From IMG/VR virus record IMGVR_UViG_3300031132_000002: DNA of 64,000 nucleotides. One strand, given 5' to 3'. The notes under the pieces were generated by a model that was not told where the DNA came from, searched no databases, and worked only from the letters and a program-made list of their open reading frames with translations. The position numbers and the translations under genes are program-made. How positions within the stretch are numbered: position 1 is the stretch's first letter; every line of letters starts with the position of its first letter. Source of the DNA: a virus. Below are positions 26,192-51,308 of the stretch, piece after piece.

Positions 26192-27610
26192 ATGGCAACT
26201 TTTCGTGATAAGGTAGTTACCGTAACTCTAAACTACGGCGCTACAGCAATTAACGAAACTCAGTTTGACATTCCTCTGATTCTTGTAGGACATAACGTTA
26301 CCTCAGACGTTACTAACACCTACACGTCTACAGATGCAATGGTATCGGCTGGTTTCTCTGTAAACAGCGCAGCCTACAAAATGGCTAAATTACTTTTCGA
26401 TGGACTTTATGCTCCTGAAAGAGTGATTGTCGGTAAGCGTGATATTACCGCAACAGACTTCACAGTTGGTGAACTTGAAGATGGTGGAGTATATGCTATC
26501 ACCCTCAGACAAGGCAAGACTTCAAAGACCTTTAGCTACAAAGCAACAGACAACGCTACTGTTCAGGAAGTCAACGAAGGCGTAGCAAAACTGATTCAAT
26601 CAGACGCTACCTGGAGTGCCAAGATCACTGTAGAAGGTACTGAAACACAGATTCTGTTCTCTCCTGTTTCAGGTCAGAATATTACTGTCGAAGGATCTGA
26701 TAACTTTGTCGAGAAAGTTCAGTTTGCTCAAAGCGTACTGGAAGATATCACAAAAGTGGCAGAAGAAGATAGTTCATTCTTCTACGTCCTATCTGAATCT
26801 CACGCAAGTGCAGATGTTCTGGCTCTGGCTGGATGGGTAGAAGAACACGACAAGATTTATTTCTTCTCAAGTCAAGACACAGATATTGCAGATGATGTTG
26901 AAGGAAACCTGCTGGTTACTCTAGGTGACACAGGCTACAATAACACAAGCCTTGCTCTGTGGACAAGCACCGCTGATAGCACCTTCCCTGAGGCTGGAGT
27001 CGTTGGTAGCATTTGTTCTGCACAGCCAGGTACAACTCCGCTGCACGGTAAAACCCTTGTCGGTGTTACACTGGAGAAACTTAGCACAGATCGTGAGTCT
27101 AAGATCGTAGCTAACAACGGAAACATCTACCGTAAAGAACACGGACTTCTATTCTACCGCGATGGATTTATGGTGTCAGGACTGTTTGCAGACTACATCA
27201 TTCACGCACTGTGGTTCAAGGCCCGTCTGGATGAATCTCTGTTCACCCTGTTCAAGCAGCAGTCTATGCTAGGTGGTGGTGTTCGTGCAACAAGTTCTGG
27301 TATTGCTCTGATTCGTCAGGCAGTGACAGCTAACCCGATTCAGGTCGGTATCTCTAACGGTACGATTGCAAACGAAGTTGTTACTTCAAGCGATACAGGA
27401 ATGTATGTCAGCCTGAAACCAACTGTTTACATCCCATCTCGTGCGGATATGACTACTGCTCAGATCAACCAACGTCTCGTTGATGGTATGATTGTTGAGT
27501 ATGTATACGCTGGATTCTTCCACTACGTGAAAGTGCAGGTGAACGTTCTGACCAACAGAACTGGAACCACAAGCTCTGCTTCAAGCTCAGTAAGCACAAC
27601 ATCATCATAA
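26192..27610 (+). CDS. tail sheath protein
   Basis: 472 aa; HGKTLVGV, GLFADYIIHALWF and YAGFFHYVKV sheath motifs. Confidence 0.88.
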   Translation: MATFRDKVVTVTLNYGATAINETQFDIPLILVGHNVTSDVTNTYTSTDAMVSAGFSVNSAAYKMAKLLFDGLYAPERVIVGKRDITATDFTVGELEDGGVYAITLRQGKTSKTFSYKATDNATVQEVNEGVAKLIQSDATWSAKITVEGTETQILFSPVSGQNITVEGSDNFVEKVQFAQSVLEDITKVAEEDSSFFYVLSESHASADVLALAGWVEEHDKIYFFSSQDTDIADDVEGNLLVTLGDTGYNNTSLALWTSTADSTFPEAGVVGSICSAQPGTTPLHGKTLVGVTLEKLSTDRESKIVANNGNIYRKEHGLLFYRDGFMVSGLFADYIIHALWFKARLDESLFTLFKQQSMLGGGVRATSSGIALIRQAVTANPIQVGISNGTIANEVVTSSDTGMYVSLKPTVYIPSRADMTTAQINQRLVDGMIVEYVYAGFFHYVKVQVNVLTNRTGTTSSASSSVSTTSS

Positions 27611-27647: not shown

Positions 27648-28127
27648 ATGGATAAGATGCTAACTGGTGTAATGGCCTATGATCCATCTAACATCACGCT
27701 ATCTCTTGGTGGATGGGAACCTTACGGGTTTGCCTCTGACACTAAAATCGTTATCAGTAAATCTAACGATATCATCAACCCTTATGGCGGTACAGACGGA
27801 GACGTGTCACTTGCTCTGAGTCGTAATCGTATGGGTACAATGACAATCTCCCTACAGAGAACCTCTGAGGCTAACGAAGTTCTTTCAACTTACGCTCAGA
27901 CAATGTACTCTACTCGGCAGGTTGCCTTCCCTGTTTATCTGGAAGATCCACGCGGATATTACATCAGCACGATTGGATGGATTCAGTCACAGCCAGACGA
28001 CACAATGGGTGACACAATCACTACAAACGATTGGGTTATTGGATTGAAAGATGCTTCCCTGCTTCGCAACACTGCAACGCTAGGTTTGAGTGTCCTGAAC
28101 TCAATTACTGCCCTGACAATCGCATAA
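27648..28127 (+). CDS. tail tube protein
   Basis: Follows the sheath gene; YDPS...GF...GTDGD...GTMTISLQRTS. Confidence 0.85.
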   Translation: MDKMLTGVMAYDPSNITLSLGGWEPYGFASDTKIVISKSNDIINPYGGTDGDVSLALSRNRMGTMTISLQRTSEANEVLSTYAQTMYSTRQVAFPVYLEDPRGYYISTIGWIQSQPDDTMGDTITTNDWVIGLKDASLLRNTATLGLSVLNSITALTIA

Positions 28128-46212: not shown

Positions 46213-48807
46213 TTAGTGACACTCAGCCCAGGATCTTCCTACGTCATAACCCGCAGTTAACTCTACATTTAGACCGTAGTATCGCCCAGCCTCCGTTACG
46301 GCAGTAACAGCCAATTCTCCAGCACGGGAATAAGCACTATAGAAACCACCGCGAGGCGAAGGATGCAGGTTAGCCCATTTACGACCTTCCTTCTCTTCCA
46401 ACTCTGCAAGAAGTTGTTTAGCCCTCTTCTCACAAGCTTTATCAATTGCTGCCTGCTCTTTCTCGTCTTCTACCTTCACCCAACCTAGTTCTTCTGGTCT
46501 CCACCATTTAAACTCAACCAGTTCTTTAGAGACTTCCACCTGTGCCTCATCGTGATAGGCGATCATTTGTTGAGCAAAAGGCATATTCTTCCAATCGTCA
46601 ACAAAGAAGTCACACAGCAAACCTTCTTCTTCAATGTAGTCATCATACAACACCATTGCACGTTTAGCACAAATAACACCGCCTGATTGGAACAGAGAGT
46701 TCAGGATAGCGTGAGCGGAACGAGTAGGGACTTTACGACCATCAATACCAGGAACGTAAGTTTTACCTGTTGCTGTCCAGTATGCAGACAACTTCTCTTT
46801 CAGATCTGCTAAAGGCTTCGCTGCTTCCCAGAAACCTCCAAACACCAGTTCACCAGTGTAAAGGTCACTACCGATAGTCTTGGCAACACGAGCCGCCTGA
46901 CTACCATAAGTACAACCGTATTTCACTGCCTTAGCACTGCCACGTTCAAACTTCTTACCGAGGATCTCAGAGATCTTTTCAGCAGTCTTAGTGTGAACAT
47001 CGTTGGGCTTATCCAACAGCAATGAGTTGCAGTATGGCTGACCTTCAACATCATATTTCCAAGTGTAGTGCGCTTCGATACGTGCTTCAAGGCTATCAAA
47101 GTCGTAACCGATTTGGAAGTAGTTAGGTGTATCTGCTCCAAACAAACTACGCATCTGTTCACCATACAGCGAAGTAACGCGAGGAATGTTTGCCACTGAC
47201 CTGTGCTTCATACGGCTTGTTGCCGCATCACACGTAGCCGCAGGTGTAGGGATTCGACCATCAGCCCTTACCGCAGCAACATAACCTTTATCTGGCTCTT
47301 CCTCTGGATCATCCCAATCAACACCACCGCCCAAGATAGAGTTACGACGATGCTTGAATGTCAGGTATTCCACAATGTCGATTGCAAACGGGAACTGCTC
47401 TGCAATCAGTGATAGGTTAGGGCAAATCTCTTTCTCCTGGCCCTTTGTAAAGCTAGGATTAGTTCTTACCTTAACACCACGCCCTTTTGCGATACGTGCT
47501 CTTAGAGTGGCTTCTAGGCGGTCTGGTGTACATTCCAGATGTTCACAACGATCATTCAGGAAGTTAGATTCAAAGGTTTGTTTCAGATAGTCCTGAATAC
47601 CTTTTTCCATCGCAGCATCTTCCTTTCGGTTCTTGGTGCCGGACTTCAAAGTAATGTCTTTATCCTTGTACTCACTTGGATTCCATCCCAAACCAACGAG
47701 CCAGTTTTTAATGTGCGTTGTATCGTTCAGCGTAGCCGGAACGTTAGGATCACAAATCGGAACTTCGGCTTCGAGCGGTAATGTAAACTCTTTACCTAGC
47801 GCTTTCAAGATGTAACCACCATTACCATCACCTACTAATTCACCGCCGTGTTTTGCAGCAAACTTGATAATGTTGGACGTAGGTTCTCCGTTCTTCTTGA
47901 ACTGCAACTTAGGTGGAATAAAATCTTTCAGATAACCCTTAGTGGCAGGCTTAGGTGGAAGAATAGGCTCTGCACGTTGACGGCGCTCCTCCATCTTTTC
48001 ATCAAGATCATTAATGTTAGCTTCTGCTTTCTTCATATCGAAGGCAAAGCCACGGTGTTCCTGTCGAGTGATAATGTCAGCTACACGCTGCTCAAGGATG
48101 AACGGGTCTAACCACTTGTCATAATCGCCCCACTCTTCTTGCAACATACGATATACAGCGGTGTTAGCCTTGTTGTCGTAGATACAGTAATACATCATAT
48201 CCGCAGCAAAAGTCTTAAATCGATCTTCTACAGGAATCTCTTTACGGAAATCACGTTTTACATCACCACCTGCTTTCTGTGATAGTGCGTCCAGGCTGTG
48301 ACCACCGAAGCGATCTGGGTTTAACACCTTACTCAGAATCATTGAGTCGATAATTTCTACGTTACTATCGCCCCAAGTGTTGTATTTAACACTGTAGTTC
48401 AGCTTGTAGAACAGCTTAACGGCTAAGAAGTCATAGTTAATGGTGTTATGACCAATGGCACGTTCAACTTTATACTCAGGTTTATCTGCAAAGTAACCTG
48501 TATGATTGACAAAATCAATAAACATACTAAGAGGAAAGTGAGTATAGTCCACTGGAACGTATTCTTTCAACTCGTATGTGTACTTATCGTCAGATTCAGT
48601 ATAAGGACGACCATCAAAGACATACTTATCACCATCGTGGAAGCCGACAATCTCTCCGCTTTCGTGGTTCTCCAGCACAATACAGTGCATACCGAAGCTG
48701 TCCCGCAGTCGATAAGGACTCTGCTTGTAGTCGATAGACGATTCTCGCAGTAAGTCTGTTGCCTCAATATCCCAAGTATAGGTATTCAGGGGAATATCAC
48801 CAATCAT
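46213..48807 (-). CDS. DNA polymerase family A with 3'-5' exonuclease
   Basis: DIEA, GHN..YD, YCIYD (exonuclease); DFDSLEAR, RGSAKAVKYG, YHDE (polymerase motifs A, B, C). Confidence 0.95.
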   Translation of the reverse strand: MIGDIPLNTYTWDIEATDLLRESSIDYKQSPYRLRDSFGMHCIVLENHESGEIVGFHDGDKYVFDGRPYTESDDKYTYELKEYVPVDYTHFPLSMFIDFVNHTGYFADKPEYKVERAIGHNTINYDFLAVKLFYKLNYSVKYNTWGDSNVEIIDSMILSKVLNPDRFGGHSLDALSQKAGGDVKRDFRKEIPVEDRFKTFAADMMYYCIYDNKANTAVYRMLQEEWGDYDKWLDPFILEQRVADIITRQEHRGFAFDMKKAEANINDLDEKMEERRQRAEPILPPKPATKGYLKDFIPPKLQFKKNGEPTSNIIKFAAKHGGELVGDGNGGYILKALGKEFTLPLEAEVPICDPNVPATLNDTTHIKNWLVGLGWNPSEYKDKDITLKSGTKNRKEDAAMEKGIQDYLKQTFESNFLNDRCEHLECTPDRLEATLRARIAKGRGVKVRTNPSFTKGQEKEICPNLSLIAEQFPFAIDIVEYLTFKHRRNSILGGGVDWDDPEEEPDKGYVAAVRADGRIPTPAATCDAATSRMKHRSVANIPRVTSLYGEQMRSLFGADTPNYFQIGYDFDSLEARIEAHYTWKYDVEGQPYCNSLLLDKPNDVHTKTAEKISEILGKKFERGSAKAVKYGCTYGSQAARVAKTIGSDLYTGELVFGGFWEAAKPLADLKEKLSAYWTATGKTYVPGIDGRKVPTRSAHAILNSLFQSGGVICAKRAMVLYDDYIEEEGLLCDFFVDDWKNMPFAQQMIAYHDEAQVEVSKELVEFKWWRPEELGWVKVEDEKEQAAIDKACEKRAKQLLAELEEKEGRKWANLHPSPRGGFYSAYSRAGELAVTAVTEAGRYYGLNVELTAGYDVGRSWAECH

Positions 48808-48865
48808 TTCCTCTCCTTTTGTTATTTATTAGGGGGCAGAGTATACACTAAACCCCTCTGCTCTG

Positions 48866-49207
48866 TCAATACTCCGAAATTTTAAATAGTGCTGTAGGAA
48901 CTTCTGATCCTACTAGTCCAACACGGTAAGTTTCCAGCGTACCCGAGTGCCCATCGAACCAAGAAAGAACCTCTTTATCTGATCCCTTAGAAGCAAGACG
49001 AATACGAACATCACTACCTTCCAGCTTTAGAAGGGTAGGGACGCATTCACTTGTCATTTGAAGAGAAATAAATACTTCTCCTTGCTCGTAGTAAATCTTC
49101 TCTCCAGCAACAAATCCATAAAGGGCAACATCACCCTCTTCTGTTTCTAGATAAGCACTAACCGAAGAAGGATCATATACCGAAAGACCACGTAACATCA
49201 CTGCCAT
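48866..49207 (-). CDS. tail tube protein paralog with internal deletion
   Basis: AAGGAG RBS; MLRGLSVYDPSSV / YGF...KI / GEVFISLQMTSE match tube MLTGVMAYDPSNI / YGF...KI / GTMTISLQRTSE. Confidence 0.72.
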   Translation of the reverse strand: MAVMLRGLSVYDPSSVSAYLETEEGDVALYGFVAGEKIYYEQGEVFISLQMTSECVPTLLKLEGSDVRIRLASKGSDKEVLSWFDGHSGTLETYRVGLVGSEVPTALFKISEY

Positions 49208-49243
49208 TTTAAAACTCCTTTAAGGGGCTTTCGCCCCATTAGA

Positions 49244-51022
49244 TTAAAACTTCATATCGCCGCCAATGTTGGCGGGATTGCTAAAGTACTGCTCTTTATC
49301 GTGCAGCGTAGCTGTTTTGATATCGTAGTAGAAGTTACCCGCAGCACCTGTCTCAGAAAACTCACGGTTTTTCAGGATGAAACAGTTTGTTGTGTTACGT
49401 TCAATCGGATCTTCCGCTGCTTTATCACGTTCAAGTGCAATTGTGATGCCTGCACCTTTAGCAAGGAAGCTACTGCCCATTGTGTCATCTTCGGTGATGT
49501 GCTCATTGTTACCGTTAGCTGACTTCTTAACGTGAGAAATCACGATAATGGTGATGCCGTACTCTTTCATAATACGCTTCAACCAAGTAGCCAATTCCTC
49601 CTGCTCACGAACATCCATACCTGAGAGTAAGTCTGAGTATGGGTCAATGACCAGAATTGTTACACCGTAGTGTACAACCATCTCCAGCACTTTCTCTTTA
49701 ACACTCTCAACGCTTGCTCCACGGTCATCACAGACAAAGAACTTTGGAGTACCGTCTGGACGTTCATAGAATGCACGAATGCGTTGTTCGTTATCCAGCA
49801 AGATAGCTTCCCGTTCTTCTGGTGTCTTCCTGTGCAGAGGAATATGCAGATAAGAAGAAAGCAAGTTACGAGAGTATTTCTTGTATGTGGCTTCCAGTGA
49901 CAGGATACCTAAAACATCCTCAGGATGCTCTACAATGATATGCTTCGTTACTTCGTTCACCAATAGAGTTTTACCGATACTGGTTTTAGCCAGGATAACA
50001 GTAATCTCTTCTCGCACCAAACCACCACCAAGCATATTTGCAGCAACACGCATAAACGCTGGCAGCGTGATAATCTGTGCATCCATACACTCAAGCGCAG
50101 CTTCAAACAGCATATTCGAGGCATAAACACCTGCTGGAGTATACAGCTTAGACTTGAAGAACTGAGTCATAAAGTGATCTTTCTTTCCGTCTTCCAGCGC
50201 CTGATTTGGATCTTTGCAGTCCAAAGTCATCACGTAGACACGGTTACGAGGCAGTACTTTAACACACTTCTCCATCGCTTCTTGACCAGCTTTATCATTA
50301 TCCAGACAGAGAATGATTTTCTTGAACTGATTCAAGAAGTTATACTGACTCTGTAGTTGACGATGAAGAGAAGTCTCACCACAAGTTCCTGATACTACAG
50401 CAATCTCTGGGTATTTACCAGCAGGATCGTTGTCTTTCAGTAGCTGTACAGCCGCCAGTTGATCGTGCTCACCACCTACAATCAGGATTGTACCGGAAGC
50501 ATTACGGTATTTGAACTGACCAAACAGGTCACATTCTTTACCTGTTTCACCCAGAGGGCCAGGGTGTGCAAATTCTTTAGGGTGTTCTCTCACCTTATAA
50601 CCTGCAATCTCATATCCCTTTGTCACAGGATAATAGGTGCGGAAGATACTACCATCACTTGCATATTCGTACCGAACACCAAGAGGCTTTGAAATATCCT
50701 CTCGAATACCACGGTAGTTTTTAGGGTGTGTACCAGTAATCTCCTTTAACTTTTTGTGAATCTCAGCATTGAATTCTCTTCCCACTATTTCTTCCTCTTC
50801 TTCTAGTTCTTGACCATTTTCTCTTAACCATTTTTGACTCGGGATGGTGTATTCACAAGAGAAACAGAATCCACCTTTATGTTCTTCATCTGAATCCAAG
50901 CCATATACCATAAGGTTATTTCCTGAACGATCCCTTCCCTTGCTTACGCAACGGGGGCAAGCCTGATGCCCTTCTCGTGATAAATCAACTTCTACGCCAT
51001 ACTTCTTAATGATGAAGCCCAT
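49244..51022 (-). CDS. primase-helicase (T7 gp4-like)
   Basis: CPRC...CFSC zinc finger; GGEHD and DND TOPRIM; AKTSIGKT Walker A; VIDP. Confidence 0.93.
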   Translation of the reverse strand: MGFIIKKYGVEVDLSREGHQACPRCVSKGRDRSGNNLMVYGLDSDEEHKGGFCFSCEYTIPSQKWLRENGQELEEEEEIVGREFNAEIHKKLKEITGTHPKNYRGIREDISKPLGVRYEYASDGSIFRTYYPVTKGYEIAGYKVREHPKEFAHPGPLGETGKECDLFGQFKYRNASGTILIVGGEHDQLAAVQLLKDNDPAGKYPEIAVVSGTCGETSLHRQLQSQYNFLNQFKKIILCLDNDKAGQEAMEKCVKVLPRNRVYVMTLDCKDPNQALEDGKKDHFMTQFFKSKLYTPAGVYASNMLFEAALECMDAQIITLPAFMRVAANMLGGGLVREEITVILAKTSIGKTLLVNEVTKHIIVEHPEDVLGILSLEATYKKYSRNLLSSYLHIPLHRKTPEEREAILLDNEQRIRAFYERPDGTPKFFVCDDRGASVESVKEKVLEMVVHYGVTILVIDPYSDLLSGMDVREQEELATWLKRIMKEYGITIIVISHVKKSANGNNEHITEDDTMGSSFLAKGAGITIALERDKAAEDPIERNTTNCFILKNREFSETGAAGNFYYDIKTATLHDKEQYFSNPANIGGDMKF

Positions 51023-51038
51023 TACTACTCCTTACTTA

Positions 51039-51308
51039 TTAGAATCCCTCATTATCGTACATAACGTTTTCAATAGCATCTTCACGTAATTTTGCTTGAA
51101 GCTCTCGCATCAACTCTTCTTTACTGACATATCCAGCCCAAGGCTTACCGTCTTGAGTGAGAGAAATAATATCGACAAAGAAACCACCTTGATAATCCCA
51201 ATCGCTATCTACACAATAAGGGTCTGGTGCATTATATTCACAAGCCACTTCTACCTGAATCTTTTCGCCCAGGTCAGTTTTATAATCAAAATCATAAGTT
51301 ACGTACAT
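51039..51308 (-). CDS. hypothetical protein
   Basis: Coupled ORF; DSDWDYQG. Confidence 0.65.
   Translation of the reverse strand: MYVTYDFDYKTDLGEKIQVEVACEYNAPDPYCVDSDWDYQGGFFVDIISLTQDGKPWAGYVSKEELMRELQAKLREDAIENVMYDNEGF

Follow-up and report, generated by a model that had tools for sequence, protein, structure and literature searches.

A shortened tail tube paralog encoded among the replication genes of a phi92-related myophage

Why should a relative of a phage tail tube gene lie between the genes for a primase-helicase and a DNA polymerase, and what might its product do there? The question is raised by ORF113, an open reading frame in the stretch of viral DNA analyzed here (64,000 nucleotides, IMG/VR record IMGVR_UViG_3300031132_000002; hereafter, the window), which originates from a myophage related to phi92 and to the Stephanstirmvirinae. 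A sequence-only reading of this DNA had described ORF113 as a copy of the phage's own tail tube protein from which a hairpin had been deleted, and had suggested that it serves as a decoy or as an inhibitor of assembly. The genes and elements concerned are the following.

48866..49207, minus strand: ORF113, a 113-aa tail tube paralog without the hairpin and without the C-terminal arm; PHROG 22634; counterpart of phi92 gp160
49215..49220, minus strand: ribosome-binding site AAGGAG, 7 nt 5' of the ORF113 ATG, read from the sequence
49244..51022, minus strand: primase-helicase, upstream neighbor of ORF113, 74% identical to phi92 gp161
46213..48807, minus strand: T7-like family A DNA polymerase, downstream neighbor of ORF113, 67-72% identical to phi92 gp159, without an intein
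27648..28127, plus strand: tail tube protein, parent of the paralog, 159 aa, matching phi92 gp131 (PDB chain 21vm_A, E 2.3e-85)
27762..27833, plus strand: codons for tube residues 39-62, the beta3-beta4 hairpin, with no counterpart in ORF113 (gap in hhalign, HMM match in two stretches, AF2 strands E42-47 and E53-58)

Homology between ORF113 and the tail tube protein

As read from the sequence and its translation, ORF113 begins with an ATG and runs for 113 codons. It lies 21 kb from the tail tube gene, on the opposite strand: the structural module, with the sheath gene (26192-27610; PHROG 205, E 1e-94), the tube gene and a tail assembly chaperone gene, is on the plus strand, and the replication genes are on the minus strand. 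By tblastn, the tubes of Phapecoctavirus and Justusliebigvirus (Stephanstirmvirinae) share 82-85% identity with that of the window. The window's tube also matches other solved tail tubes, that of phiTE being ~47% identical, and it scores 25.1 against Pfam PF11681 (KPP10_Orf10), for which the cut-off is 25. At the DNA level, no cultured phage in the searched collection was found to be near the window.

ORF113 is a true homologue of its own phage's tail tube protein. A BLASTP comparison of the two yielded an E-value of 4e-5 over the first 48 residues, and their Smith-Waterman score stood ~6 sd above those of 1000-2000 shuffles, none of which scored as high, whether or not a long gap was made cheap. 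When a profile of the ORF113 family (11 members, described below) was compared to 177,635 PDB sequences, the phi92 tube gp131 was the top match (E 1.2e-7) and two further tail tubes came next; the match to gp131 consists of two stretches, with tube residues 40-62 skipped between them. Alignment of the family to an 18-member tube alignment by hhalign gave a probability of 98.4% and an E-value of 4.7e-15 over 59 columns, and contained one gap, of 24 residues, at tube positions 39-62. Among the 644 six-frame ORFs of the window, the paralog and tube profiles are each other's only matches, and in the whole genomes of phi92 and phiWec188 the family profile matches only gp160 and the tubes.

The paralogy that had been proposed by eye is thus borne out by BLASTP, by the shuffled sequences and by the PDB profile search, as well as by similarity at the level of profiles (hhalign) and of structures, tubes being at the top of the all-PDB structural search described below. 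The first three of the alignment blocks originally seen (the N-terminus, YGF..KI and ISLQ.TSE) stand up statistically; the fourth, at the C-terminal strand, does not do so by sequence, and its position is that of the last beta-strand in the structural match. The homologous part is made up of the N-terminal ~63 residues, which comprise the arm, beta1-beta2, beta5 and the start of helix alpha1; past residue ~63, hhalign detected no sequence similarity between ORF113 and the tube. Neither ORF113 nor the other family members had a Pfam match at E up to 1 besides noise, and they fall below the gathering threshold of PF11681.

Elements lost and kept in the predicted fold

The AF2 model of ORF113, built on the family alignment, has a mean pLDDT of 81. 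In an alignment-based structural search of 48,161 PDB representatives, tail tubes hold all of the top ranks, and tube-like tail proteins together with Hcp account for most of the top 35; the matches (Z 9.2-6, the best at 9.2-8; rmsd 2.6-3 Å) extend over 92-97 of the 113 residues, at model positions 10-113. The top Foldseek matches were also tubes, and weak (E 5e-3). Split-barrel flavin reductases and PilZ proteins (Z ~6) were discarded, as they rank below the tubes, have no sequence support and are taken to reflect a general barrel likeness. In BFVD, the best viral matches of the model (mfa18f8aa10c3) are uncharacterized proteins of 111-115 aa, among them proteins of Cronobacter phage CR9 and of Bacillus phage CP-51; the distribution of short proteins with a tube fold may extend beyond the ORF113 sequence family.

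Comparison of the secondary structure of this model to that of an AF2 model of the tube gives the following map of elements.

ORF113 strands 16-22 and 38-41: tube strands 17-20 and 35-38
ORF113 strand 44-50: tube strand 62-70
ORF113 helix 55-61 (shortened): tube helix 75-89
Last three strands of ORF113: tube strands 94-99, 104-114 and 126-134
Tube hairpin strands 42-47 and 53-58: nothing in ORF113
Tube C-terminal helix 146-155: nothing in ORF113, which ends after its last strand

No region of the tube family is more conserved than the hairpin. At the hairpin site ORF113 has a four-residue turn, and the hairpin is absent from all 11 family members; the deletion reported earlier is confirmed as a single gap, its limits being better drawn at tube residues 39-62 than at 35-62. 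A second loss, that of the tube's C-terminal arm (~residues 136-159), had been missed. The match to the phiTE tube (9cb9_B) pairs model positions 12-113 with chain positions 14-136, and since it stops at 136 of the chain while the model ends at 113, the arm is left without a counterpart. ORF113 is therefore modeled as a tube core (a beta-sandwich and a helix) with the N-terminal arm, minus the hairpin and the C-terminal arm.

The structure of the phiTE tail indicates what these elements do in a tube. Much of the interface between rings is made by the hairpin, which lies between strands 2 and 5 and touches subunits of the head-distal ring. At the head-proximal ring, 18 residues that extend the N-terminus are wrapped over the nearest subunit's hairpin, and the C-terminal arm wraps the intra-ring neighbor and contacts the sheath (PMC11972413). 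As ORF113 has lost both the inter-ring hairpin and the arm that makes the intra-ring and sheath contacts, we infer that it most likely cannot polymerize or enter the tail.

The N-terminal arm, in contrast to these losses, is kept. Hhalign pairs it with the tube N-terminus position by position, it matches the tube arm motif MDK.L.G..AYDPS, and nowhere is the family more conserved than at its residues 1-15 (a mean pairwise BLOSUM of 2.67 vs 0.9-1.6 elsewhere), which include four of the eight invariant or near-invariant residues (M1, Y11, D12 and P13). In the AF2 model it is a low-confidence coil outside the sandwich. Conservation of an arm that lies outside the core argues for a conserved partner, and the only known partner that this arm appears to have in the parent protein is the tube hairpin.

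This combination of losses and retained parts bears on two of the possible functions. One is that the protein joins a ring or the end of a tube and blocks its growth, acting as a dominant-negative poison of the tails of co-infecting related phages or of premature polytubes. The sandwich core, which in the tube forms the inner barrel of the ring, is kept along with the arm, and related genera with 82-85% identical tubes share hosts, some of them without the gene. Stable incorporation is nevertheless doubtful for a protein without the hairpin that docks on the ring below and without the C-terminal arm that holds the ring neighbor. Moreover, the phage's own near-identical tube would also be hit unless timing or specificity prevented it, and we found no evidence of a specificity that would spare it. 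We regard such poisoning as improbable. Since the phiTE hairpin docks a subunit onto the ring below, ORF113, which has none, would be poorly suited to cap premature polytubes, and the capping of growing tubes is likewise disfavored.

The other is that the tube fold belongs to a minor and so far unseen component of the virion or of its assembly, for example an additional tube-like ring, or a scaffold lost before maturation. Two distant relatives in the family alignment match PHROG 13903 ('virion structural protein'), and small families of tail-tip proteins came up in a language-model search, a result that we treat as a lead only. The tube N-terminus also touches PHROG 13903 weakly, and the label may have been carried over from the tube, not derived from virion data. 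The gene itself is outside the structural module and on the opposite strand, and Phapecoctavirus, with the same tail genes, does without it. In the cryo-EM atlas of phi92, gp131, gp135 and gp137 account for all of the tube-like rings, and gp128 and gp129 for the neck; gp160 is neither assigned to a part nor mentioned (PMC13450770). As the atlas covers all tube-like rings without gp160, a structural role is unlikely, and we consider the chance of a hidden virion or assembly component to be very slight.

An accessory gene family in DNA-metabolism modules

When 1.84 billion representative proteins were searched exhaustively with HMMER, ten relatives of ORF113 were found, 112-123 aa in length and 27-56% identical, all of which share an MDK.L.G..YDPS N-terminal motif, YGF and an LQ.TS block. 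With phi92 gp160 included, the family consists of ~10 clusters at <50% identity, with lengths of 112-131 aa. Close relatives of ORF113 are present at the full 113 codons in ~30 near-identical contigs. PHROG 22634 is matched by ORF113 at E 3.3e-7 and by nine of the 11 family members (best 1.5e-28). Phi92 gp160 is 31% identical to ORF113 (E 2e-13), is found by the family profile at E 3.6e-26, and occurs in 56 Justusliebigvirus records at 90-100% identity; over seven Justusliebigvirus genomes its dN/dS was 0.11, compared to 0.027 for the primase-helicase and 0.032 for the polymerase. Taken together, the number of clusters, the full-length copies, the spread of gp160 and its dN/dS indicate a conserved gene that is not decaying.

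The gene is nonetheless accessory and not core. At profile sensitivity, no family member was detected in the whole genome of phiWec188 (Phapecoctavirus), in which the primase-helicase and polymerase genes are side by side, and in Salmonella phage PVP-SE1 the family profile matches only the tube. (A small gene after the PVP-SE1 polymerase, gene 18, was considered as a family member and rejected, at 0.4% probability.) The gene also diverges much faster than its neighbors: dN of gp160 is ~10 times that of the primase-helicase and polymerase, and ORF113 and gp160 are 31% identical, compared to 67-85% for the neighbors and the tube. An 89-aa gene upstream of the primase-helicase (window 51039-51308, minus strand) is just 36% identical to phi92 gp162; rapid divergence is thus common to the small genes of the operon and not peculiar to ORF113.

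The family has gone unrecognized in the databases and papers searched, its members being labeled 'endonuclease/hydrolase' or hypothetical. We reject the nuclease reading of gp160 ('endonuclease' or 'endonuclease/hydrolase' in GenBank), since no member matches a nuclease or hydrolase Pfam family and the fold is a tube-type sandwich. Also excluded were P0011, P0012, P0014, P0016 and P0017, five long proteins (474-1874 aa) that each had several short matches; their only Pfam matches were unrelated or sub-threshold, and we took the similarity to be one of chance or composition. A tblastn search of cultured phages with the distant members P0013 and P0005 gave no match, and an IMG/VR scan with a single protein gave no relatives.

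Some family records deserve separate mention. P0085 and P0093, which are closely related to ORF113 and P0003 and belong to different sub-clusters, have a similar ~10-residue insertion in the N-terminal arm (..LV.D.K.VP.H..), which may mark either a different form of the arm or a different start site. P0081 is a 66-aa truncated version of ORF113 on six short contigs, and may reflect contig ends or a frameshifted copy. Four 'Campylobacter phage' records (MG065639, MG065645, MG065656 and MG065689) are Justusliebigvirus genomes with gp160 copies ~98% identical to that of phi92; MG065639, the one opened, is marked UNVERIFIED, and the Campylobacter host label looks doubtful.

The placement of the gene in the replication region, first noticed in the window, proved to be general. 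In ten independent contexts it was found in a DNA-metabolism module each time, and never in a tail module; in eight of them it adjoins a primase-helicase or family A polymerase gene, in varying order.

Window, phi92, L003 and L010: gene between primase-helicase and polymerase
L008: gene after primase-helicase
L007, L009 and L004: gene after polymerase
L011: gene overlapping the end (stop codon) of an exonuclease gene, with a RuvC-like resolvase gene after it
L005: gene near a DprA-like gene

Homing endonuclease genes (HNH, Endo VII) were observed near the paralog in L004, L007 and L011, and at the head of the DNA-metabolism module of L011 (positions 1-655 of a 135-kb contig with member P0010) a SIR2-domain protein is encoded.

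One possible explanation for this placement is that the tube fold was exapted as an accessory subunit or a regulator of the primase-helicase/polymerase machinery, with a role in replication or recombination that is unrelated to tails. Besides the ten contexts, and in particular the copy that overlaps the exonuclease gene and precedes the resolvase gene, it is in line with the arrangement in the window, where ORF113 is on the same strand as its neighbors, closely packed with them and provided with its own ribosome-binding site. It is difficult to reconcile with phiWec188, which does without the gene while its primase-helicase and polymerase genes match those of the window at ~74% nucleotide identity, and with a dN an order of magnitude above that of the supposed partners. 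All members are acidic (pI 4.5-5.6), so that DNA binding is unlikely, none matches a nucleic-acid or nuclease family, and the conservation of a tube-specific arm would be left unexplained. In T7, small host-takeover genes are also located beside the polymerase gene, and position alone is therefore weak evidence. We consider a replication role of this kind unlikely.

Two signals flank the gene.

49224..49237, minus strand: GGGGCGAAAGCCCC stem-loop, between the primase-helicase stop codon and ORF113, found by sequence comparison
48840..48869, minus strand: sigma-70-like promoter TTGACA-N18-TATACT ahead of the DNA polymerase gene, with 11/12 consensus matches; a consensus match only

The stem-loop, of the form GGGGCG(A/C)AAGCCCC with a GNRA-type loop, is kept where the primase-helicase and polymerase genes meet, in the window as well as in phi92 and phiWec188 (elsewhere at approximately 4345-4358 of L001 and ~3345-3358 of L002), and candidate roles for it are those of an attenuator, a processing site or a stabilizer. 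The stop codon of ORF113 lies inside the -35 hexamer TTGACA of the polymerase promoter, an arrangement also seen in the metagenomic locus L003. In phiWec188, the primase-helicase gene is followed by the GGGGCGCAAGCCCC stem-loop, a TTGACT promoter-like site and the polymerase gene; in the window and in L003, the paralog is found between the stem-loop and the polymerase promoter. Phi92 gp160 is upstream of the stem-loop, whereas ORF113 is downstream of it, and this presence of the gene at slightly different points in the window/L003 and phi92 lineages fits a moved or replaced cassette. Judging by gene position and the consensus promoter, production of ORF113 probably precedes or accompanies that of the late structural proteins.

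The polymerases at these junctions differ as well: that of phi92 (L001 4436-7750) is ~240 residues longer than that of the window (1104 vs 863 aa), their alignment consists of two blocks, with phi92 residues ~585-822 left unaligned, and records of related phages label their own polymerase as intein-containing.

Possible functions and comparison with known systems

Mimicry of a tube subunit is the best-supported functional direction for the ORF113 family. Since the N-terminal arm is its most conserved and most tube-like part, and in phiTE wraps the hairpin of another subunit, we propose that ORF113 imitates the acceptor face of a tube subunit, which would take a tube hairpin under its arm and have none to offer in return. 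With the arm and without a hairpin of its own, it would bind free tube subunits and would not join or cap a tube. ORF113 may accordingly be viewed, tentatively, as a soluble and non-polymerizing mimic whose arm would clasp the hairpin exposed on unassembled tube monomers. Such clasping could hide the conserved, immunogenic hairpin from sensors that read it; alternatively, it could restrain tube monomers from untimely self-assembly. The first of these effects has a possible target in Avs16, a sensor of the tube for which the hairpin has been modeled as the contact surface (preprint, PMC12803255).

Several observations count against clasping. The arm of phi92 gp160 resembles that of the tube less closely (AYDYTKT, 4 residues being inserted), and the alignment of gp160 to the family profile begins only at position 9. 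Shielding each tube monomer would require near-stoichiometric amounts of a protein that is encoded outside the late operon, and the Phapecoctaviruses, with an 85%-identical tube, lack the gene. Furthermore, a replication-linked function would also explain the placement of the gene in DNA-metabolism modules in all ten contexts.

An additional scenario is that ORF113 acts on the sensor and not on the tube: produced early, it would occupy a sensor of unassembled tube without triggering it, and the later burst of tube protein would go unnoticed. Small amounts would be enough to saturate a sensor, and a decoy of this kind agrees with a gene located among the replication genes and not the late genes, present in some genera and not in others, and diverging fast. 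The N-terminal arm, exposed only in unassembled subunits, is kept and conserved, and DSR2 is activated only by monomeric tube, via its core domain (PMC10981675). Avs16, on the other hand, is modeled as a reader of the hairpin (PMC12803255). Lacking the hairpin, ORF113 would be no decoy for Avs16-type sensors, and a DSR2-type sensor of the monomeric core or arm is the kind that it might still occupy. The decoy is further weakened by the absence of detectable tube sequence similarity past residue ~63 and by the degree of divergence, the paralogs differing by 69% where the tubes differ by 15-18%, so that most of the tube surface is uncopied. No defense system is linked to the ORF113 family, and we know of no sensor of phi92-type tubes. 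Occupation of a receptor is, in our estimate, rather unlikely.

Taking the two routes together, a tube copy turned immune-evasion protein, which either masks the hairpin read by Avs16-like sensors or sits on a sensor of unassembled tube, is possible and at present doubtful. What probability remains belongs to functions outside the readings discussed here. Because unassembled tube is read by both DSR2 and Avs16, a non-assembling tube mimic derived from the phage itself would be a candidate for a new way to hide or imitate a viral pattern. If immune evasion is indeed its function, ORF113 would be, to our knowledge, the first anti-defense protein derived from the structural protein that it protects; if it functions in replication instead, it would represent an unexpected reuse of a tail fold. 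Phi92 has the gene, as do phages of E. coli K-12 in the BASEL collection, and it is absent from sister phages whose tube is nearly the same, which makes these proposals easily testable.

Compared to the phi92 and phiTE tubes (gp131, PDB 21vm, and PDB 9cb9; PF11681, PHROG 280), ORF113 shares the N-terminal ~63 residues, the fold over its whole length and the acidity. It differs from them in size (113 vs 159 aa), in the lack of the beta3-beta4 hairpin, the C-terminal arm and alpha2, in a shorter alpha1 and an extra short helix, in its location in the replication module, in its score below the Pfam threshold, and in that its counterpart gp160 is not among the phi92 virion parts. Gp160, with which ORF113 has in common the family, the primase-helicase and polymerase neighbors and the missing hairpin, is longer (131 aa), has a longer and less tube-like N-terminal arm, and is upstream of the stem-loop that in the window precedes ORF113.

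Duplicated tube folds with a new task are also found in gp135 (the tube initiator), gp137 (the hub) and the phiTE head-completion protein, and lambda gpU/gpFII and T4 gp48/gp54 are further tube-fold paralogs in virions. These virion proteins are structural, belong to tail or neck modules and form rings, whereas ORF113 is without the ring and stack contacts and is encoded with replisome genes. Duplication of the tube fold was thus known, but only for parts of the particle; what is new is a family without the polymerization elements, with the arm kept, and encoded with DNA-metabolism genes. Hcp of type VI secretion is of the same fold class as ORF113 (Z 6-8), but it forms rings and tubes, carries effectors and has no sequence relation to ORF113. 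In its logic, a parallel would be DSAD1, the SPbeta inhibitor of the tube-sensing DSR2: as a phage protein that prevents tube-triggered immunity, ORF113 would have the same aim as DSAD1, which acts by binding the open sensor domain of DSR2 (PMC10981675).
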